Notes: a model not told the origin generated them from the letters alone. A stretch of DNA of 43,864 nt from a virus (IMGVR_UViG_2711768005_000008); one strand, 5' to 3'. Shown: positions 3,985 to 41,595, numbered from the stretch's first letter. Made by a program: numbers and translations.

Positions 3985-4926
3985 GTGAATAATATGACCG
4001 ATATTAACGATGTAATCAAGACCATTGATGAACTTATTGATGGCGGCGTACTGACGCAGTATGCCATCGCCAGAGAGGCGGGAATTTCCGACGGCACATT
4101 ATCGGCTTTCCGTAAGGGAAAATATAAAGGCGATAACGCTGCTGTGGCTGCTTCCCTGCGCTCCTGGTATGAGAACTGGAATAAACAAAGCGCACTGCCG
4201 GAACCGCCGCAGTTTGTGGAAACTCAGACAGTCCAGGAGCTGCGCGCACTGTTTCAGGCGGTTCGCCTGATGGGCTGTATTAACGTTATTGTGGGCGTAC
4301 CGGGTGTGGGTAAAACGGCCACTGCCCGTAATTACTGCCAGGAGCAACCAAACACCTGGATGATCACCCTGTCACCCGCGCACTCCAGCGTCACGGAGTG
4401 TCTGCTGGAGCTGGCCGATGCGCTGGGGATTGATTACACCCGCGCGAACAAAGGGGCATTATCCCGCGCCATCCGCCGTCGCCTGATGGGAACGCGTGGA
4501 CTGGTGATTGTGGATGAGGCGGATCATCTTGGTATTGACGGTCTGGAGCAACTCCGGGCAATTCAGGACGCCACGGGGATCGGGATGGTGCTTATTGGTA
4601 ACCCGCGCGGATTGTTTAAAGGTGGACGCCGCGCCTTTGATGATTTATCGCGCCTGTTCAGCCGTCTTGCCCGTACAAAACAACTTCGCAAGGCCAAAAA
4701 GGCGGATGTGCTGGCCATTGCCATGGCGTGGGGGATCAGTGGTGAGGCCGAGCTGGCCGTCATGCAGGCTATCGCTGAAAAGCCGGGAGCGTTACGCGTT
4801 CTGACACATACGCTTAACCAGGCGTGGCTCACCGCCAGCGGTGAAGGCGCGGCGCTGACAGAAAAACATATTAATGCGGCCTTTAAAGAGGTTTATACCA
4901 ACCCTGAATTACTCTCACAGGTGTGA
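3985..4926 (+). CDS. B: Transposition ATPase B (AAA+ target-DNA activator)
   Basis: 313 aa; Walker A VGVPGVGKT, Walker B VIVDEADHL; directly follows A. Confidence 0.85.
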   Translation: MNNMTDINDVIKTIDELIDGGVLTQYAIAREAGISDGTLSAFRKGKYKGDNAAVAASLRSWYENWNKQSALPEPPQFVETQTVQELRALFQAVRLMGCINVIVGVPGVGKTATARNYCQEQPNTWMITLSPAHSSVTECLLELADALGIDYTRANKGALSRAIRRRLMGTRGLVIVDEADHLGIDGLEQLRAIQDATGIGMVLIGNPRGLFKGGRRAFDDLSRLFSRLARTKQLRKAKKADVLAIAMAWGISGEAELAVMQAIAEKPGALRVLTHTLNQAWLTASGEGAALTEKHINAAFKEVYTNPELLSQV

Positions 4927-4928
4927 TT

Positions 4929-5150
4929 ATGGCGGTATTTAATATTCCTGATATTTACGGACGCTTTTACCTGGTTAATTTCGATAACGTGAAGGTGATT
5001 TCACTGGCCGAAAATAAAGAATGTGGCGATTTACTTTTTGAATTTAATGACCGCACACGAATGGTGATATCTGCCGGACTTGATCGCGAAGGTGCGACAG
5101 AAGTTTACAGCGGAATATGCCGTTCTGTTGGTGCGAAACAAGTCAGCTAA
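4929..5150 (+). CDS. hypothetical early protein
   Basis: ORF in the co-directional early operon, overlaps the B stop; function unknown. Confidence 0.4.
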   Translation: MAVFNIPDIYGRFYLVNFDNVKVISLAENKECGDLLFEFNDRTRMVISAGLDREGATEVYSGICRSVGAKQVS

Positions 5151-5162
5151 ATGAGGTGTTAT

Positions 5163-5417
5163 ATGAATATGCAATCCTGCGGTAACAAAATGAATTTATT
5201 CGACTCCCTGAACAGCGCGCGCCGTCTGACCGAACTTGCCGGTGCGGTACTGGAACGCAGTAAGCGCTATCCGCAACGTTTTGCACTGAAAACCACGCCG
5301 CCGGTAGGCAACGTGCAGGGAACCGGTGAAATTGAAATCACCATACAGACCAACGGCCTGCGCCGCCGTGTGAAGGCCACCCGCATCAGCGGCTGCACGG
5401 TTTACTGGGAGGTGTGA
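5163..5417 (+). CDS. hypothetical early protein (start ambiguous, 5151-5163)
   Basis: ORF in early operon. Confidence 0.4.
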   Translation: MNMQSCGNKMNLFDSLNSARRLTELAGAVLERSKRYPQRFALKTTPPVGNVQGTGEIEITIQTNGLRRRVKATRISGCTVYWEV

Positions 5418-5418
5418 G

Positions 5419-5700
5419 GTGAAAAAAAATCTCATTGCATGGGCGTGGTCGAGTGGTCTTATTGAGTTTGGTTACGTCCTGCCGGAAGGTGCATTGCCGA
5501 TAGTTGCCGGAAAGCCTGCCACGGTACGGCATGTGATTGAGGTTATGGCGCGTCATGGACGTGATGAACAGGAGCAGTTACTGGTTCCGGGGATACCGGA
5601 AGCGGTGACGGAGGAAGAAGCCTTTAATGCCATGATTCGGTTCTGCCGTGAGGTTAGACGCCGGGTCAGTTATCCAAACAGAACGAGGACCAGAGGATGA
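5419..5700 (+). CDS. hypothetical early protein (GTG start)
   Basis: ORF preceded by GGAGG, tightly packed with its neighbours. Confidence 0.4.
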   Translation: MKKNLIAWAWSSGLIEFGYVLPEGALPIVAGKPATVRHVIEVMARHGRDEQEQLLVPGIPEAVTEEEAFNAMIRFCREVRRRVSYPNRTRTRG

Positions 5701-5969
5701 GTAAAGTCGTACGCATTATTTTCGAATACAAGGAAGATGTTATCTGCAAAAACTCTGATGGCAGCACGCACAGAGGGGTAAGTCTGGATATACGTTCAAC
5801 CGGAATAAAGAAGAAAGATAATGGACCCGCCATGATTTTTGGGGTGGTTATGCTGGCAGAAAGCAGAAACTTCGCAGAGTTTGTGGCAATGAAAGCCAGT
5901 GCATTCATGAAAGACAGAGGCATGGCTTCCGGGGTTATTAACGGTAATGAATTTAATCAACAGGGGTAA
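5697..5969 (+). CDS. hypothetical early protein, paralog A (MSKVVRIIFEY...)
   Basis: ORF; N-terminus resembles the next ORF. Confidence 0.45.
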   Translation: MSKVVRIIFEYKEDVICKNSDGSTHRGVSLDIRSTGIKKKDNGPAMIFGVVMLAESRNFAEFVAMKASAFMKDRGMASGVINGNEFNQQG

Positions 5970-5973
5970 TTCC

Positions 5974-6267
5974 ATGAGCAAAGTACGCGTTATTTTTGAA
6001 TTTAATCATGTTTCGCATGACGAAAAGTTGGCAGGCAATGACTGTGTTGAAGTGCATGAAAAGATTGGAGTGGATGTGAAAACAGAACGTGATACGGATA
6101 ACAGGCCGACGTCACTCTGTGACGTTTATGCAAGTATTCTCCAGTATCACAGTCCTGCAATTATTCAGTTTCTCTCAGCGGAATTTCAGGCATCTGCACA
6201 GTCTTTTGGAGCGGATGCCATCATTAAACGCCACCGCGTGCATAAAGCATCAGGCACACTGCAATAA
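5974..6267 (+). CDS. hypothetical early protein, paralog B (MSKVRVIFEF...)
   Basis: ATG at 5974 preceded by a purine-rich stretch; N-terminus parallels the 5697 ORF. Confidence 0.45.
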   Translation: MSKVRVIFEFNHVSHDEKLAGNDCVEVHEKIGVDVKTERDTDNRPTSLCDVYASILQYHSPAIIQFLSAEFQASAQSFGADAIIKRHRVHKASGTLQ

Positions 6268-6278
6268 GGAAAAACAAA

Positions 6279-6809
6279 ATGGCTAAACGCGTTACAAAAT
6301 TAAAGGCCGCAGCCGAGGCGGCACCGCAGACCCGGGAAGAAGTCAGCCGTGATATCCGCACCCTGGGAGATATTCAGCGAGAGGCGCTGCGCCTGGAAAC
6401 GGCGATGAATGACGAAGTGGCAGAAATCACCGCCCGTTATACGCCGCAGATTGAAAATCTTAAAAAGCAAATCAAAGTGCTTTTTAAAGGGATTCAGGAC
6501 TGGTGCAAAACCAACCGTGATGAGCTGACGAACGGCGGCAAAACCAAAACAGCCAATCTGACCACCGGAACGGTGTCATGGCGGCTGGGAACGCCATCAT
6601 GCAGCGTCAGCCGTGATGTGGAAGGTGTGATTGAAATGCTGCGCCGTATGGGGCTTGAGCGTTTCATCCGCACGAAAGAGGAAGTGAACAAGGAAGCCGT
6701 CCTGGCGGAGCCGGATGCTGTGAAAGGCATTGCCGGTATCAAGGTGAATAAAGGCGCTGAAAGTTTTTATGTCGAGCCTTTTGAACAGGACGCCGGACTG
6801 AATAAATAA
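6279..6809 (+). CDS. gam: Gam-like host-nuclease inhibitor (Ku-like DNA end-binding protein)
   Basis: 176 aa; DIQREALRLETAMNDEVAEIT...NRDELTNGGKTKTANLTTGTVSWR...RFIRTKEEVNKEA closely parallels Mu Gam. Confidence 0.8.
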   Translation: MAKRVTKLKAAAEAAPQTREEVSRDIRTLGDIQREALRLETAMNDEVAEITARYTPQIENLKKQIKVLFKGIQDWCKTNRDELTNGGKTKTANLTTGTVSWRLGTPSCSVSRDVEGVIEMLRRMGLERFIRTKEEVNKEAVLAEPDAVKGIAGIKVNKGAESFYVEPFEQDAGLNK

Positions 6810-6954
6810 CACCGCATTAATCAATTAAATATCACTTCATTTTAATTATGGCGCTCGCGTCAGGGGACTGCTTGCGCCTGAAAACAGAAAATAAGGGTTA
6901 AGAAATATGAAATACGTTTATATCGTCATTAATAATGTGGTGGGGAAATAAATC

Positions 6955-7488
6955 ATGATTGATGCAAAAGTGCTTGAAGGGGTTAAAAACTGGCTGTGTA
7001 TTTATGGCCGCCTGACCTGCGGTGTACTGGCTGAAAAAATGAATATGCCGCCATCCTCCATGGTTTATTTTCTGCGTGATGCGGTTGATGCAGGCGTGCT
7101 GACGGAATGTAACGGTTTTTATGATATTCCGCGTCCCCGCCCGGTGCAGCCGGTTCGTCGCAAATGCAGCCAGGAATCTGCGGCTGATGATGTTCAGTGG
7201 TGCGGCTTCAGAAAATCCCTGCCATGGATTGAGGGGCATGATATTCCGTCGATGGCGTGGGAATTTGCTCAGGGCGTTCTGACCTGTGAAACCGTTTATG
7301 TGGTGGCTGAAGTTGATGAGCAGGCCATGAAAGAAGGCGTGCCCCAGTTTGTGATGGCGTATATCGACATACGCCTGGGCGTCATTATCTGCGGTTTAAG
7401 CGGCTGGAATATCACTGAACATGTTCTGCGCTACCTGATTGTTGACCGGACAGCAGCGCCTGCCGGGATATCTGCGGAGGTGGCGTAA
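6955..7488 (+). CDS. hypothetical protein, possible N-terminal helix-turn-helix
   Basis: 177-aa ORF in the early operon. Confidence 0.4.
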   Translation: MIDAKVLEGVKNWLCIYGRLTCGVLAEKMNMPPSSMVYFLRDAVDAGVLTECNGFYDIPRPRPVQPVRRKCSQESAADDVQWCGFRKSLPWIEGHDIPSMAWEFAQGVLTCETVYVVAEVDEQAMKEGVPQFVMAYIDIRLGVIICGLSGWNITEHVLRYLIVDRTAAPAGISAEVA

Positions 7489-31704: not shown

Positions 31705-32255
31705 CCCTGACCCCGCATCAGCGCGCCCTGTTGCAGTTACTGCCTGACGGGCTGGCATGGGACAAGCGTCCGTCATCCGTACTGGCATCATTATGTCTGG
31801 GCCTCAGTCATTCGACAGCGCGTGTATCCTGGACGGGTAAACAGCTGCTTGCCGAGCGTTTCCCTGACACGTCGCGCCTGCTGCTGGAAGACTGGGAGCG
31901 TTATCTCGGGCTTCCCGAGTGTGATATGGCCGGAGCCACCCTCACGGAGCGACAGCGTTATGCCGGAAATAAATACCGGATGAAGCCCTCGCTGAACCGT
32001 GAATTTTATATCCGGTTTGCGGCGGAGTTTGGTTATCAGATTGACATTCAGCCCTCACCGGATTCGCAGTGGGTCAGTATTGTCACGATTAACAGTGAAA
32101 CCGGCTACCGGAATATGAATGTGCTGGATGATATTCTCACGCCGCTGCGTATTTATGAAGGCGGTGCGCTGGAATGTATTCTGAACCGTTATAAGCCTGC
32201 ATGGCAGACGTTTATTTACGTTTATGCAAACAGCCATGAAGAGGAGACTATTTAA
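31695..32255 (+). CDS. Tail protein (Mu gp48, P2 gpI-like)
   Basis: 186 aa, synteny before the tail fibre. Confidence 0.55.
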
Positions 32256-33136
32256 TGTTTCATGTTGATAATAATTCCGGCGTGGCGAATATGCCTGCGC
32301 TGGCACCGGCGCAGAGTAATACCACCACCTGGTTTACCGAAGGTGACGGACAAAAAGGTATCAGCTGGATTGGTCAGGACTGGCTGAATATTCTCCAGGC
32401 CGAACTGCTGAATATTCTGGCTGAAGCCAGTATTCAGCCGGATAAGGCGCAGTTAAACCAGCTTACGCTGTCCATTAAAGCCATTATCGCTGCGAATGCC
32501 TTTTCCCGGAAAAATAACCTGAAAGAAATTGCTGATGCCGGTGCGGAGGCCCAGCGTCTGGCCCGTGGTTATCTTGGTCTGGGGACGCTTGCCACAAAAA
32601 ACAGTCTTGGTCCCGCTGACGTTAATGCCCTGGCGAAGGATCAGAATCTCGCCGACCTGGAGAATAAGGGAACCGCCCGTAATAATCTGGATGTTTACAG
32701 CAAAAGCGAAGGTGATAACCGTTACCTGCGCAGGGAGCAGAACGGCGCAGACATTCCGGATAAAGGGGCTTTTATCGATAACGTCGGTTTACGGGAAACG
32801 GTAAACAGGGCGGCGAATGCCCTGCCATCGGACGGCACCGCCGTTGCCGCGAACAGGCTGGCAAATGCCCACACAATTAATGGTGTTCCCTTTGACGGGA
32901 CGCAGGATATCACTATCTCATCAGGAACAGTAACCGCCATAAGACTGGGGTCGGTGACCGCACATATGCCCGGAACATGGGAAAGCTGGGATCTGAATCT
33001 GGGGGGCGGCAATGTTCTTACCGGAATTAAAGTACAGGATGTCGGTAAGAATACGGCAGATAACGTCGGCGGCGTGTATTACCGGCCGTTGCAGTATCTG
33101 TTAAATGGAGCATGGGTGACGGCTGCAAGTATATAA
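32255..33136 (+). CDS. S: Tail fibre protein S (constant part plus variable C-terminus Sv from 32798)
   Basis: [13 protein letters not shown] motif; the gene is crossed by the left gix-like site at 32772-32797. Confidence 0.8.
32772..32797 (+). promoter_or_regulatory. Left inversion crossover site (gix/hix-like 26 bp): TTATCGATAACGTCGGTTTACGGGAA
   Basis: Matches the gix/hix half-site pattern from memory; inner half TCGGTTTACGGGAA is identical in the right-hand site. Confidence 0.6.
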
Positions 33137-33167
33137 TGATATTCAGAAGGCCTTCCGGCCTTCTTTA

Positions 33168-33689
33168 TTACTGTGGCTGCTCAGGCCATTTAATGGCGTT
33201 AAATTCAGCTTCTGTTTTAATGGCGGGTAGTTCCATTTTCTTCACCTGACTGATGTATGCCATCCATTGGGTAAGTGCTGCTCTGTCTTCATCGCTGATG
33301 GTGCCCAGTTGTAGCTCCGTTCTCCAGTCATTAATTTTTTCATATGCCTGATTAAGATATGACTGGCGCATTGCTTCCAGTTTTCTTGCGTAGTTAACCG
33401 GAATACGGGAGATTATGCCATTATCAAACTTCCAGTTTCCTGAAATATCCGTGCCTTCAGGGAGTTCATCGACCTCAACCACAGAAAACCCCGCAGGATA
33501 CAGCGCCGAGGCGTCCTGTGATATTGAGCAGATAACGCCGCTGTCAGGTGTTATGCAAAGTTTATATTTTTTGGTGAATAATGGCAGGGATTCGTAGAAA
33601 TCCTTACCATCTTCACTCTGGAAATACTGAACATTATTACCATATGGCATATTTTCAGGATAATAACGGGTTATATTTTTTAGTTCCAT
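33168..33689 (-). CDS. Tail fibre assembly protein U' (for the alternative fibre orientation)
   Basis: 173 aa on the minus strand inside the invertible segment, AGGAGG RBS, downstream of the Sv' cassette. Confidence 0.7.
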   Translation of the reverse strand: MELKNITRYYPENMPYGNNVQYFQSEDGKDFYESLPLFTKKYKLCITPDSGVICSISQDASALYPAGFSVVEVDELPEGTDISGNWKFDNGIISRIPVNYARKLEAMRQSYLNQAYEKINDWRTELQLGTISDEDRAALTQWMAYISQVKKMELPAIKTEAEFNAIKWPEQPQ

Positions 33690-33776
33690 AAAATCCTCCT
33701 GGAAATAAATCTGTTTTAAAATATATTATTTACTGACTATTTATAACTGAGATACCGTAATCCATGTACCTCCGAC

Positions 33777-34088
33777 TAATTTTTGCAGGGGTCTGAATGC
33801 TATAAAATCGTTTGAAGCATCAACTTTACTGTCAATCTGCAGGCCTGCCATAACATTACCGTACGCAGAGTAATATGCCCCACCGTACATTACCTGCCTG
33901 TTCTCTGCTCCCAGCCTGATATCCTGGATATATCGGGAATCCGCATCCTGCTGTGTTATACCAGAAGTGATGTTTATGTCCTGCGTCCCGTCAAAGGGAA
34001 CCCCATTAATATTTCTTGGGGTGGCGAGTCTATTCGCGGCAACGGCGGTGCCGTCCGATGGCAGAGCATTCGCCGCCCTGTTTACCGT
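33777..34088 (-). other. Sv' - alternative tail-fibre C-terminal coding cassette without its own start, joined to S upon inversion
   Basis: Minus-strand frame continuous from the right gix site: [47 protein letters not shown]...FIAFRPLQN, stop at 33777-33779. Confidence 0.65.
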
Positions 34089-34114
34089 TTCCCGTAAACC
34101 GAGGTTTTCAGGAA
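34089..34114 (-). promoter_or_regulatory. Right inversion crossover site (reverse complement TTCCTGAAAACCTCGGTTTACGGGAA)
   Basis: Outer half TTCCTGAAAACC nearly matches the gix/hix consensus half-site as I recall it. Confidence 0.65.
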
Positions 34115-34179: not shown

Positions 34180-34752
34180 ATGCTGATTGGGTATATCAGG
34201 GTGTCAACAAATGACCAGAATACGGCGCTACAAAGAAATGCGCTGGAATGTGCAGGATGTGAGCTGTTTTTCGAAGACAGAATAAGCGGTAAGACAAGGG
34301 AGCGTCCCGGACTTAAACGCGCATTAAAGCGACTCCGGCCAGGGGATACCCTGCTGGTCTGGAAACTGGATCGCCTTGGACGCAGTATGCAGCACCTTGT
34401 CCTTTTAACAGAAGAACTCCGGCAACGCGGCGTTAACTTCCGCAGCATTACGGACAATATTGATACATCCACTCCCATGGGACGTTTCTTTTTCCATATA
34501 ATGGGCGCGCTGGCGGAAATGGAGCGGGAACTCATTATTGAACGTACACGCGCGGGTCTTGCTGCTGCCCGTGCTCAGGGGCGTCATGGCGGCAGACCTC
34601 AGAAACTGACAGAGAAAGAGCGGGAGCAAATCGCCCGTTTGCTGGCTAATGGCGAGTCCCGTAAACAAATCGCACTGATATTTGATATTGGCCTTTCCAC
34701 CCTTTATCGTTATTTTCCTGCCTCACCAGCTCCGTCACCAAAAGTACCGTGA
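34180..34752 (+). CDS. gin: Serine DNA invertase (Gin/Hin/Cin/Pin family)
   Basis: MLIGYIRVSTNDQNT...LLVWKLDRLGRS...C-terminal HTH GESRKQIALIFDIGLSTLYRY; classic resolvase/invertase N-terminal catalytic motif. Confidence 0.9.
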   Translation: MLIGYIRVSTNDQNTALQRNALECAGCELFFEDRISGKTRERPGLKRALKRLRPGDTLLVWKLDRLGRSMQHLVLLTEELRQRGVNFRSITDNIDTSTPMGRFFFHIMGALAEMERELIIERTRAGLAAARAQGRHGGRPQKLTEKEREQIARLLANGESRKQIALIFDIGLSTLYRYFPASPAPSPKVP

Positions 34753-34837: not shown

Positions 34838-36892
34838 ATGTCAGACTCCAAGTGGAAAATGCTCTCCGCCATGCCCGGAGAGTTTTCAGTCAAGGTTGCC
34901 GGTGGCACGGTGGCATTTATTGAAAGCCCTTTCCGCCCTTCGGGTAATAAAGGGGGGATCACCTTCGCAGACTGCGTGATCCGCTTCAGCACGAAAGAGC
35001 CATTATGGGTAATGCCGGTATCCGGTAATCCCAGTGCAGAAATCACCAGTTCAGGCGTGACTGGCATCATTCCAATCACATCTGACGTGGCCGGAACGCT
35101 CACGCCCTCCGACTGGAATGCACCGGATAACGCCGGGCCTTCCGGTAGCACGAATGGCAGCAGTTCAGAGCCGGAATATTACTTTGTTGTCATTCTCGCG
35201 GGTCAGTCAAATGGCATGGCCTACGGCGAGGGGCTGCCGTTACCGGATTCGTTTGACCGCCCGGACCCACGCATTAAGCAACTGGCACGCCGCAGTACGG
35301 TAACGCCCAACGGTACGTCGTGTACATACAACGACATCATTCCGGCAGACCACTGCCTGCATGATGTTCAGGATATGAGCGGGATAAACCACCCGAAAGC
35401 TGATCTGGCAAAAGGCCAGTACGGGACTGTCGGTCAGGGGTTGCATATTGCCAAAAAACTGCTTCCCTATATCCCACAGAATGCCGGGATACTTCTGGTG
35501 CCCTGTTGTCGTGGCGGGTCAGCATTCACCACTGGAGCCGACGGCTCATTCAGTGAGGCCAGCGGTGCTTCCGCTGATTCTTCACGCTGGGGGGCCGGTA
35601 AACCTCTGTATCAGGACCTGGTAAGCCGCACCAAAGTCGCGCTGGCGAAAAACCCGAAAAACAAACTTCTGGCTGTGGTCTGGATGCAGGGAGAGGCAGA
35701 CCTTGCCTCAGGAAGCCAGCAGCATAATAGTTTATTCACGGCCATGGTTCAGCAGTTCAGAACTGACCTGGCTCCGCTTGCTGCGCAGTGCGTGAGTGGA
35801 AATGCCACCACGGTGCCGTGGATTTGCGGTGATACCACGTATTACTGGAAAAACGCTGGCACCGATAAATATGAGGCAGTATACGGTGGCTACAAAGGCA
35901 AGGAAGCACAGAAAATTTTCTTTGTACCGTTCCTGACGGATGAGAATGGACAGAGCACGCCAACGAATGCTCCGGCGGAAGACCCGGATATTGTGGCTGT
36001 CGGGTATTACGGTGCAGCATCCCGAACCCAGGGCAGTTTTGTTTCGACACAGCGTGACAGCCATTTCAGCTCATGGGCACGCAGGGGCGTCATTTCAGAC
36101 CGTCTGGCCTCAGCTATTATGCTCCATGCAGGGCGCACGGCTGAACTGATGCGTGGGCAGACCGTGACACCACCGGATGAGAAGCCGTCACCTGATACAC
36201 CATCAAAACCGTCCACGCCACCCGCAGACACCACGACGATGAGTACGCTATTTGCTTACCGGGCATCTGAGTCTGAAGGACGGTTGACACCACAGGGTTG
36301 GGCTGCCGGAGGTGGCAAGGCTCAAATCGTGGATGATGCCGGAGCCAGCGGGGGTAAGGCAATGAAACTGACCAAGGAAACAGGAAGAGCCCCCTGGTAC
36401 CTTGAGCATGATGCTGGTAATGGTGCGGACCTGCTGGGTAAAGGTGGTCTTGTCAGTTGTCGTTTTAAACTCGATGGCGCGCTTACGGCTAATCAGTACG
36501 CACTGGCGCTGTACTGGCCGGTTTCTGCCCTGCCGCAAGGGGTTACTCTGGAAGGAAATGCCGGTCATAACCTGCTGGCATCGTTCTACGTACAGAGCGA
36601 TGCCACAGACCTTAACGTGATGTATCACAAAGGAAACACGGCGCAGAACACGAAGCTGGGGTCATTCGGCGCATTTAATAACGAATGGCATACGCTGGGC
36701 TTCCGTTTTGCCGGTAACAACAGTATTGAGGTGACGCCGGTCATTGATGGTAAGGACGGGACACCATTCATGCTGTCGCAGTCTCCGGTCGGCACGTTTA
36801 CGGCAGACAAGTTGCGCGTGACCGATATCACTAAAAATGCGACTTACCCGGTACTGATTGACAGTATCGTGGTGGAAGTGAATAACGCGTAA
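34838..36892 (+). CDS. SASA/SGNH-hydrolase-family carbohydrate esterase (sialate O-acetylesterase-like, NanS-p-like) with N- and C-terminal extra domains
   Basis: GQSNGMAYG nucleophile motif (residue ~125), VVWMQGEADL block, later DSH; 684 aa; sits between gin and com/mom, where Mu has no gene. Confidence 0.6.
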   Translation: MSDSKWKMLSAMPGEFSVKVAGGTVAFIESPFRPSGNKGGITFADCVIRFSTKEPLWVMPVSGNPSAEITSSGVTGIIPITSDVAGTLTPSDWNAPDNAGPSGSTNGSSSEPEYYFVVILAGQSNGMAYGEGLPLPDSFDRPDPRIKQLARRSTVTPNGTSCTYNDIIPADHCLHDVQDMSGINHPKADLAKGQYGTVGQGLHIAKKLLPYIPQNAGILLVPCCRGGSAFTTGADGSFSEASGASADSSRWGAGKPLYQDLVSRTKVALAKNPKNKLLAVVWMQGEADLASGSQQHNSLFTAMVQQFRTDLAPLAAQCVSGNATTVPWICGDTTYYWKNAGTDKYEAVYGGYKGKEAQKIFFVPFLTDENGQSTPTNAPAEDPDIVAVGYYGAASRTQGSFVSTQRDSHFSSWARRGVISDRLASAIMLHAGRTAELMRGQTVTPPDEKPSPDTPSKPSTPPADTTTMSTLFAYRASESEGRLTPQGWAAGGGKAQIVDDAGASGGKAMKLTKETGRAPWYLEHDAGNGADLLGKGGLVSCRFKLDGALTANQYALALYWPVSALPQGVTLEGNAGHNLLASFYVQSDATDLNVMYHKGNTAQNTKLGSFGAFNNEWHTLGFRFAGNNSIEVTPVIDGKDGTPFMLSQSPVGTFTADKLRVTDITKNATYPVLIDSIVVEVNNA

Positions 36893-39336: not shown

Positions 39337-39795
39337 ATGAACGACATCTCTTCTGACGACATCTTCCTGCTGAAACAGCGCCTTGCCGAACGTCAGTTGA
39401 AAACGAAACCGCTGCTGAAATCCCTGGAAAGCTGGCTGCGTGAAAAGATGAAAACCCTGTCGCGACACTCAGAACTGGCGAAAGCGTTCGCATATGCCCT
39501 GAACCAGTGGCCGGCGCTGACGTACTATGCAGATGATGGCTGGGCTGAGGCGGACAATAACATCGCTGAAAATGCGTTGCGGATGGTCAGTCTGGGCCGC
39601 AAAAACTACCTGTTCTTCGGTTCGGATCATGGAGGAGAGCGGGGAGCGCTGCTGTACAGCCTGATCGGGACGTGCAAACTGAACGGAGTGGAGCCAGAAA
39701 GCTACCTCCGCTATGTCCTTGACGTCATAGCCGACTGGCCGATAAACCGGGTCGGCGAACTGCTCCCCTGGCGCGTAGCACTGCCGACTGAATAA
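39337..39795 (+). pseudogene. tnpC: IS66-family transposase TnpC, C-terminal fragment only (N-terminal ~two-thirds absent)
   Basis: ...MKTLSRHS.LAKAFAY.L.QW.....Y...GW.E.DNNIAENALR....GRKN.LF.GSD.GGE..A.LYSLIGTC.LN.VEPE..LRYV...I.DWP.NRV..LLPW matches the IS66 TnpC C-terminus. Confidence 0.75.
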
Positions 39796-39832: not shown

Positions 39833-41021
39833 GGTAAACACCCCGGAAGTGGTGATGCACACTGTTGCTGATGTGATGACAGGAAACGATGGTGAATACT
39901 GTTTCCATGCGCGGACTGGAAAATATGGTGTGTATCTGAAACCGGGCTGGCACAACGAGTACAACGTTGGCGACATTGCTGTATACGACGACTCAAAGCC
40001 CGGCACGCTGAATGACTTTCTGATTGCTCCTGATGAGGGCGACCTGAAACCGGATGTCGTCAAACGCTTTGAGGAAATGGTGGCGCAGGCGCAGCAGAGC
40101 GCCGGGGCCGCAGCCGGAAACGCACAGCAGACGGCGCAGGATGTGGCGGCAGCCGCAGGTTATGCCCGCGCAGCAGAGCAGGCCAAAAATGACATTGATG
40201 CTGCGCTGACCGGCACTCTGAAAACGGCTAACCATCTGTCTGAAATCGCAGCAGCAGGCGAAAAGGCACAACAGAAGTCCCGGGATAATCTGGGGCTGAA
40301 AAGTGCGGCCACGATGGAAGCACAGAGCGACATTTACGACCGGACAAAAGGCCGTCTGGCGATACCCGGCGCATTCGGCTTTGGGTGTGCTTTTCTGCCT
40401 GAAGATGTTATCCGTTTTGACACTAAGAGTGATTTCCTGGCCTGGGTAAGGAATGCGCTGCCAGGTGAATATTCCGTTGCTGGCCCCTACGACATCATCA
40501 TACCCGACACACGGTTTGAAGGGGTGCTCAGCATCCGGTGGACTGATGCACGCCCTGAGACAACAGAACCGAGGTACAGAGCCAAATCCCTTACTTTTTA
40601 CGGCATTAACGGCCCCATTTATCACACCCGCTACTGCTACTGGCCCATATCCAGACTGACTGGCTGGGTGAAAATAAATATAACCACAGAAGATATTATT
40701 TACAGAATCGTGGCGAGCTCTGTCTGCAACAGATGGGGAGACCCTGACATTGGCGGGCTGATTATTGCTGCGTACCAGGGAGAAGCTGACGGTGATAAAG
40801 TCATCAGACTTGTCAGGGGGCAGTCATACAGAGGCTCACGACTGGGACCGGTGGGGATTTCAGTGCCCAGTACTCCCACCGGAACGTATATAGCATCCCC
40901 ACAATTTTTCATTACGGGATGTTCAGAGCATTCATTACCGGGGTCATATAGCGCCCTGTCCGGGGTGCCGGATGCTCATGTCTCTGGCGCAATGCCCGGG
41001 CTTTTTATTCGCACATCGTGA
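39833..41021 (+). pseudogene. Tail fibre gene, 3' portion (5' part displaced upstream by the IS66/Mu-like insertion)
   Basis: Frame is open from the IS boundary with no plausible native start; Ala/Gln-rich shaft region then a C-terminal globular part; followed by a putative tail-fibre assembly gene. Confidence 0.55.
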
Positions 41022-41031
41022 GGAATGCACC

Positions 41032-41595
41032 GTGGAAATTAAAAAAATCATTAATCCCCGTTATACCGAAAGTGGCGCAGTAGACTGTGACGTTTTTTTT
41101 GACGACAGGGACCAGGCAGTCCCCTACACAGCCACCGCTGATGATGTCGCACCGACGGGTCAGCGAATCTGGCAGGAACTGCAAAGTGGCAAATGGGGTG
41201 AGATAGCCCCATTCACTGTGACACCAGAAATGCTGGAAGCGGCCAGAGAGGCCAGACGTCAGGAAATTGAAGCATGGCGCACAGAACAGGAGGCGAAGCC
41301 GTTCACGTTTGAATGGAATGGTCGTATCTGGAATGCTGGCCCCGACTCACTGGGCCGCCTGTCCCCGGTAGTCATGCTGGCAAAATCTGTCACAGCACAA
41401 ACGCATATGGCGTGGGGTGATGCCGATAATCAGCAGGTGAAACTGTCGATGCCGGAACTGGAAGAACTGGCGGCAGCAATGGTGCAGGCGCAGGTCGATC
41501 GCAACGATGAGATTTATCGCCGTCAGCGTGAAATGAAAGAGGAGCTGAGTGGTCTGGAGGATTTGGGAACAATTAGAGCGTTTGATGTTACGTAA
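41032..41595 (+). CDS. Putative tail fibre assembly / tail-fibre-associated protein (start ambiguous: 40972, 40978 or GTG 41032)
   Basis: Position immediately downstream of the tail fibre; AGGAA before GTG 41032. Confidence 0.45.
   Translation: MEIKKIINPRYTESGAVDCDVFFDDRDQAVPYTATADDVAPTGQRIWQELQSGKWGEIAPFTVTPEMLEAAREARRQEIEAWRTEQEAKPFTFEWNGRIWNAGPDSLGRLSPVVMLAKSVTAQTHMAWGDADNQQVKLSMPELEELAAAMVQAQVDRNDEIYRRQREMKEELSGLEDLGTIRAFDVT

Follow-up and report, generated by a model that had tools for sequence, protein, structure and literature searches.

Organization of the tail-fibre locus

The stretch analysed here, referred to below as the window, is the 43,864-nucleotide viral sequence IMGVR_UViG_2711768005_000008, which carries a Mu-like transposable prophage of E. 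coli with a tail-fibre gene, S, and a gene for a serine DNA invertase, gin. The region is a working Gin-type DNA-inversion switch, by which a short tail fibre exchanges one receptor-binding tip for another. In the orientation present, S (32255-33136, plus strand, 293 amino acids, aa) is composed of a constant part, Sc (32255-32771, plus strand, about 172 codons before the left crossover site), fused to a variable C-terminal tip of type A, Sv (32798-33136, plus strand, 116 residues past the crossover). On the other strand lie U' (33168-33689, minus strand, 173 aa), a tail-fibre assembly (Tfa) gene that is antisense to S in this orientation, and the alternative tip of type B, Sv' (33741-34088, minus strand, 119 residues past the crossover), which is silent here. 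The Sv' frame is open from 34100 down to its stop codon at 33741-33743 and meets a stop codon just upstream of the crossover site, hence it lacks its own start codon. Between the convergent Sv and U' there is a G+C-rich terminator hairpin (33145-33164, plus strand), with an 8-pair stem including 5 G-C pairs and a T-run tail on the plus strand only (TTATTACTGT), while the Sv' stop and the U' start are separated by a spacer of 51 nucleotides (nt; 33690-33740, minus strand), A+T-rich and provided with an AGGAGG ribosome-binding site.

The segment is bounded by two 26-bp crossover sites, gixL-like on the left (32772-32797, TTATCGATAACGTCGGTTTACGGGAA, central TC at 32784-32785) and gixR-like on the right (34089-34114, reverse complement TTCCTGAAAACCTCGGTTTACGGGAA, central GA/TC at 34101-34102). 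They are mutually inverted, imperfect palindromes with the same central dinucleotide, as Gin and Hin switches require, and share an identical inner half, GGTTTACGGGAA. In the whole 43.9-kb window their common 18-nt core is present at these two places and nowhere else, once per strand, as compared to 0.00 occurrences expected (100 shuffles). The two sites agree with gix of a canonical Mu-type prophage (locus L008) at 21-22 of 26 positions; a direct gix search with a limit of three mismatches does not pick up either site. Longer inverted repeats, one of 86 nt (93%) and another of 50 nt (84%), have the two sites at their outer ends. The enclosed 1.34 kb hold Sv on the plus strand, the terminator, and a single Tfa gene, U', together with Sv' on the minus strand. 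This is not the content of the canonical Mu G segment, where Sv and U occupy one strand and U' and Sv' the other, as they do in L008. A preliminary description of this DNA had proposed just such a minimal Gin-invertible tail-fibre switch, with gix-like sites of identical inner halves and an Sv that lacks the co-oriented assembly gene possessed by Sv', and all of these features hold.

The invertase gene gin (34180-34752, plus strand, 190 codons) is located outside the invertible segment, just past the right site. Its product shows the make-up of a small serine recombinase, i.e. a resolvase catalytic domain (PF00239, E=1.6e-51) with the active-site serine and its motif YIRVSTNDQ, and a C-terminal helix-turn-helix (PF02796, HTH_7, E=4.9e-15). 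It also matches phrog_125, annotated as 'DNA invertase' (E=2e-94), and is identical at 135 of 190 residues (71%) to Gin of the canonical Mu-type prophage. In Mu, the 5' part of gin additionally contains the Fis-dependent recombinational enhancer that acts in cis.

Inversion in natural genomes

When the segment is flipped in silico at the central TC, the result matches the prophage of E. coli FORC_043 end to end, at 99.72% over 2498 nt. There, S is joined to the other tip, giving a protein of 296 aa, and the assembly gene comes next on the same strand. Both orientations are thus present in public genomes, in line with the detectable inversion that the preliminary description called for: FORC_029 has the one seen in the window (Sv-on), and FORC_043 and NCCP 13983 have the inverted one (Sv'-on). 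The host-prophage junction of these three strains, within a fimbrial usher gene, is 100% identical, and since Mu-like insertion is random, an identical junction combined with opposite orientations indicates one lysogenisation followed by inversion in place. A polymorphism that distinguishes the repeat arms travelled with the segment, hence the exchange was bounded to the region of the sites. Beyond this prophage, two Citrobacter rodentium assemblies carry a 94.5%-identical switch in opposite orientations, and E. coli strains DLI.5a, TOE17 and AST46 harbour two prophage copies each, with oppositely oriented segments.

Some individual copies are altered. In FORC_043, the frame of tip A is interrupted in the silent Sv copy (about 4500-4860 of that locus, minus strand) by an indel of 1 nt, and the C. 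rodentium assembly CP038008 displays many indels, apparently assembly errors. The mouse strains M1, M3 and M18 represent a natural phase-locked, Sv-on variant (4414-5240 of the M3 locus), in which gin has lost about 165 codons to a deletion that also took away the right crossover site and the greater part of Sv', leaving S-Sv on the plus strand.

A short Mu-type fibre with two alternative tips

Over residues 1-190, S can be aligned to Mu S (5yvq_A, E=9e-46) as well as to Mu S/S' (8ju3_A, E=9e-47), and the crossover falls in the motif GADIP.K..FI.N.GL.ETVN, at a position equivalent to that of Mu. Sv has its homologues in the C-terminal tip domains of Mu S' (8ju3 residues 423-488) and Mu S, and Sv', which in FORC_043 stands in frame with Sc, is homologous to Mu S tip residues 435-502. 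The baseplate-binding N-terminal part and the C-terminal tip are hence both homologous to Mu S/S', as expected for a Mu-type fibre. The two variable parts align with the last ~70 residues of Mu S and S', the distal tip domain that binds the chaperone in PDB 5YVQ; the S fibre is therefore a Mu fibre minus its shaft of ~210 residues, with 293-296 aa versus 504 aa in Mu. The AlphaFold2 monomer model of S-Sv is poor (predicted local distance difference test score 42, tip 50-79), and its two best Foldseek matches, 5yvq_A and 8ju3, agree weakly with the Mu tip identity.

No Pfam domain, including Peptidase_S74, was found in S-Sv at E<=0.1, and the alignment carries the C terminus of Sv to the very end of Mu S' (488/488) and Mu S (503/504), with no extension. 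As Sv ends where the Mu tips end and matches no Pfam domain, an intramolecular chaperone of the Peptidase_S74 type (as in T5 pb1 or the K1F endosialidase), which the preliminary description had suggested for this C terminus, was ruled out. A search for homologous proteins with the 94-aa tip yielded fragments only. It should be noted that tip A alone lacks the 9-residue motif M[TP]xSTA[DN]xRY (S residues 222-226; alignment columns ~270-285), which precedes a V..[VI]RLG strand in every other tip type and in Mu S.

The assembly gene U' and its surroundings

The assignment of U' as a Tfa is based on PF02413 (E=4.8e-19, 69 bits versus a cutoff of 22) and phrog_136 (E=5e-56), and its residues 18-153 match Mu U (5yvq_B, E=4e-16). 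A second Tfa-like open reading frame was sought by tblastn and by a Tfa hidden Markov model run on stop-to-stop frames of at least 40 aa, and neither the plus strand of the segment nor any other part of the prophage yielded one; a U-like frame on the plus strand is what the preliminary description had named as contradicting its proposed asymmetry. DNA of the U'-type N-domain occurs in 345 of 5426 genomes (~6%), with a median of one place per genome.

Concerning expression, no minus-strand sigma-70-like promoter site for U' was found at the threshold of the tool used, and relaxed scans 5' of U' returned only 8-9/12 matches, which 20-76% of the shuffles also reached (five spacer types). A common Mu late-promoter motif was sought in the intergenic regions of the window, giving nothing usable 5' of U'. 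The spacer before tfa measures 51, 79 or 121 nt depending on the type, the three being mutually non-homologous, versus 1-2 nt in canonical Mu-type loci. Mu Tfa reportedly binds host lipopolysaccharide as well. Its architecture is summarised in PMC9608196: a variable N-domain binds the fibre tip, the C-domain is conserved, and the protein stays on the virion at the tip. For C. rodentium CRP28, Table S3 of PMC3072379 gives RNA-seq values of 10.5 reads per kilobase per million for tfa and 24.2 for S, which come without strand or segment layout and serve as a lead only.

One Tfa gene for two tips is a common layout

In every relative examined, among them the type of prophage Sp18 (E. coli O157:H7 Sakai), STEC2017-197, SCU-171, C. 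rodentium and several IMG/VR contigs, the order is S-Sv(+), tfa(-), Sv'(-), gin(+). Having a single Tfa is therefore a common layout and not a peculiarity of this window. At least five tip types exist, and the pairs seen in the E. coli family are A+B, A+E, C+D and C+E. Within this family the tips are strictly divided by position: A and C are always Tfa-distal and convergent with tfa, and B, D and E are always upstream of tfa. Three Tfa types follow the proximal tip, and A and C tips pair with all three of them. The N-terminal half of Tfa is well conserved despite the strong divergence of B, D and E.

More distant loci show further arrangements. Citrobacter braakii ATCC 51113 (4819-7223 of its locus) has three crossover-like sites, a 472-aa fibre and three tips with one Tfa, the latter being a 229-aa protein whose C-terminal half is DUF4376 instead of the usual Tfa C-domain. 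A survey of 80 IMG/VR loci, with invertases 74-100% identical to Gin and scanned for inverted repeats immediately 5' of the gene for the invertase, yielded one-Tfa segments in Sp18-like and P2-like prophages, as well as two-Tfa segments; at many loci the repeat detector, a crude one, found no repeat. Two loci, L078 and L101, have fewer Tfa-like genes than tips, L078 combining three tips of the same class with one Tfa-like gene. One-Tfa segments of P2-like prophages have no spacer at all before tfa.

Comparison with known inversion systems

The closest textbook system is the Mu G segment. In both, a Mu-like transposase, Mor, gp44-48 and mom are present, the switch follows gp48, the crossover falls at the equivalent S motif in similar sites, a related Gin is encoded just outside the right site, and the tips and U' are homologous. 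The segment described here is nevertheless much shorter, 1.34 kb as compared to ~3 kb in the canonical Mu-type prophage (gix at 1880-1905 and 4970-4995 of L008), its variable parts of 116-119 residues are devoid of the long Mu Sv shaft, it has one Tfa gene rather than two, preceded by the 51-nt spacer in place of 1-2 nt, and a DUF6645/SASA esterase gene is inserted between gin and mom. Regarding Mu U (TfaMu, PDB 5YVQ), U' resembles it in sequence and in its PF02413 domain, with the difference that here the Tfa N-domain is conserved across very different proximal tips and one alternative tip has no co-oriented copy.

Sp18 and its relatives have, besides the same gene order, the DUF6645 gene, and are 83-85% identical in DNA over the constant part of S and gin; they differ in their tips, C+D versus A+B here, and in their Tfa, which is ~62-65% identical. 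The group at 84% identity is the one that we take to be Sp18, and WP_010917875 is presumably derived from Sakai. Sp18 has been listed among Mu-like prophages (PMC4406740). The C. rodentium Mu-like prophages are closer, with the mentioned 94.5% identity across the switch.

The P1 C, e14 P and p15B Min segments and the P2-like shufflons share the arrangement of a serine invertase beside a segment that exchanges fibre C termini. In the textbook P1 and e14 segments there is one Tfa per tip, unlike here and in several uncharacterised P2-like loci, where Tfa genes are fewer than tips. In IMG/VR loci with invertases 75-80% identical, the segments have one Tfa gene, two, or apparently zero. Phase variation by inversion has already been measured in E. 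coli for prophage segments of the Mu and P2 types (PMC4272514, PMC9881135), the 'Mu prophage' of PMC4272514 being that of enteropathogenic E. coli E2348/69. Our literature search found no published description of the one-Tfa layout or of inversion in the Sp18-like family. Gin-type inversion of fibre C termini is textbook knowledge; this family stands apart by how small its segment is, by its mini-tips and by having one Tfa, although well-known genomes (the O157 Sp18 type and C. rodentium) show the layout.

Prophage setting and neighbouring genes

The element hosting the switch is Sp18-like, with repressor, ner, Mu transposase, a Mor-family activator, baseplate genes of the gp44-48 type and mom, and the gene 5' of S is Mu gp48-like (PF10076). 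From a left end at ~614, it interrupts an IS66-family element whose parts flank it at 1-613 and 39337-39795 (tnpB at 303-626, the C terminus of the transposase picking up again at 39337); among the complete E. coli genomes of the collection searched, none shares this IS66 insertion site.

Between gin and mom, positions 34838-36892 (plus strand) encode a 684-aa protein with a SASA domain (PF03629, sialate-O-acetylesterase type) and DUF6645. Its gene has the same orientation as the late genes, is conserved across all relatives and bears the label 'tail fibre' in some records; the product could be a second receptor-modifying tail protein, indifferent to the orientation of the segment. Outside the Mu-like prophage and adjoining smpB, there is a remnant of a different prophage (39849-41595, plus strand) with a lambdoid side-tail-fibre (Stf) N-terminal domain (PF08400). 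Beside this Stf fragment, 40972-41595 encode a 207-aa, Tfa-like DUF4376 protein that resembles the C-terminal half of the C. braakii Tfa.

Selection and orientation bias

Tip A shows a ratio of nonsynonymous to synonymous divergence (dN/dS) of 0.13-0.18 over a synonymous divergence (dS) of 0.34-0.71, and tip C of 0.11 over a dS of ~1; the values are 0.09-0.16 for tips B, D and E and 0.15-0.22 for tfa. The Tfa-less Sv tips are under purifying selection equal to that on the Tfa-linked tips and on tfa, and the idea that Sv is a decaying remnant was discarded on these ratios.

Among complete E. coli genomes, the Sv-on state is the commoner one, 20 versus 6 for this prophage type and 182 versus 25 for the Sp18 type, both counts being uncorrected for clonality. 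In the other carriers the prophage sits beside different host genes, which indicates that the insertions are largely independent. Given that inversion leaves the sites unchanged, a symmetric Gin reaction should give about 50:50, and the observed bias departs from it. One reading is a founder effect from infectious Sv-on phage; another is an orientation-dependent read-through into gin. The one-Tfa loci of IMG/VR have the tfa-antisense orientation in a ratio of 13:5, likewise uncorrected for clonality.

How tip A may be assembled

In the mechanism that we propose, Gin recombines the two 26-bp sites at the central TC and flips ~1.3 kb. The constant, 177-residue N-terminal part of S thereby receives tip A (Sv) in one state and tip B (Sv') in the other, and each of these is a miniature version of the Mu S/S' receptor-binding tip domain. 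U' would travel with tip B as one module and be co-transcribed only in the Sv'-on state. The state seen in the window is Sv-on, with U' antisense and the S transcript terminated at the hairpin, and it is probably functional, not off. Tips of the A/C class would assemble with no co-expressed phage Tfa, a bare tip thereby alternating with one made with, and possibly capped by, U'. Taken as a whole, this two-state host-range switch, with a functional Sv-on state and Tfa-independent A/C tips, is our leading account, held tentatively and with somewhat less than an even chance of being right. The part stating that tip A is Tfa-independent is about as tentative, although slightly favoured over an orientation-independent supply of U'. 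If so, Sv-on virions would be infectious and tip A would not need U'. That the switch changes the use of Tfa along with the tip, from a bare, self-folding Mu-type tip in one state to a U'-capped tip in the other, is a further step and a rather doubtful one. The positional split of the tip types and the free assortment of A and C with the Tfa types favour Tfa independence, as do the lack of a second Tfa and of an above-chance U' promoter, the spacer-less P2-like segments and the rarity of the U'-type N-domain.

Several observations pull in the opposite direction. P2 has a tail-fibre gene, H, followed by its assembly gene, G, and likewise four of the four non-invertible phages with a tip-A-like fibre end (POP15, CR3, phAPEC8 and 18-1-2) have a PF02413 gene directly downstream. 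Tips A and B belong to a common fold family and conserve the C-terminal motif YYRPxQ..G.W. In C. braakii a C-like tip occupies the Tfa-proximal position, and the locked, gin-deleted Sv-on variant of M1, M3 and M18 retains an intact antisense tfa. The genome counts, being uncorrected for clonality, could show a bias that reflects unequal switching rates and not infectivity, and Mu S is reported to need U (PMC9608196).

Much of this would be accommodated if U' were instead a chaperone generic to these tips, needed by both and expressed in both orientations from an unrecognised promoter inside the segment, either in the spacer or in the Sv' coding DNA, an alternative that we regard as unlikely, although a serious one. 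Elsewhere, as in the four non-invertible phages, a Tfa gene always accompanies tips of this family, and the conservation of the fibre-binding N-terminal domain of Tfa while B, D and E diverge suggests a generalist. U' moreover has its own strong ribosome-binding site and a spacer of 51-121 nt depending on the type, the locked deletion variant keeps the spacer together with tfa, L078 combines one Tfa-like gene with three same-class tips, and in C. braakii a C-like tip adjoins a Tfa gene. Such a promoter is nevertheless not apparent: the minus strand lacks a sigma-70-like site at threshold, weaker matches in the five spacer types do no better than shuffles, and the spacers are unconserved between types and missing from the P2-like one-Tfa segments. 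A shared chaperone would also leave unexplained why A and C tips are absent from the Tfa-proximal position in the E. coli family.

Two other accounts carry little weight. In the first, raised in the preliminary description as a non-adsorbing state, S-Sv would misfold for want of Tfa, the particles would be fibre-less and the switch would amount to an on/off phase variation of infectivity. The reported need of Mu-type fibres for their Tfa (PMC9608196), together with the missing co-oriented Tfa and the lack of an evident U' promoter, speaks in its favour. But an off state would need no conserved, 116-residue receptor-binding tip, whereas purifying selection acts on A and C as strongly as on the Tfa-linked tips (dN/dS 0.11-0.18, at dS up to 0.7-1.0), these two diversified Sv types stay intact across lineages, and Sv-on is the majority state among prophages, including several independent insertions. 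A non-adsorbing state is hence unlikely, and we give the on/off account very little weight. Equally improbable is that tip A is folded in trans, with the help of a host chaperone or of a Tfa from some other prophage in the cell. E. coli genomes usually have several tfa genes, and the window itself contains another Tfa-like gene, that of the DUF4376 protein by the lambdoid Stf fragment; this protein, however, has no detectable similarity to U' (E=0.18), the U'-type N-domain is found in few genomes and essentially in these prophages, and a transposable phage that enters many strains could not count on one particular resident prophage. Tfa-independent assembly of tip A remains the reading that we prefer, at the tentative level given above.

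Significance of the one-Tfa switch

Tfa proteins are regarded as obligatory partners of Mu-, P2- and lambda-type tips, and are copied along with the tips in fibre engineering. The locus described here provides two homologous mini-tips that nature has placed on the same scaffold, with a co-transcribed Tfa for just one of them, and as phase-locked and both-orientation variants exist in public strains, the Tfa dependence of the tips, or the sharing of Tfa between them, is directly testable. Members of the family are found widely in pathogenic E. coli (the O157 Sp18 type) as well as in C. rodentium, and the strong orientation bias is relevant to the way in which these transposable prophages set their host range. 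If the alternation between a bare and a U'-capped tip is true, Tfa dependence would not be obligatory for the Mu-type tip fold, and the recurring Mu-like and P2-like prophage segments in which tips outnumber Tfa genes would constitute a distinct and overlooked design class.

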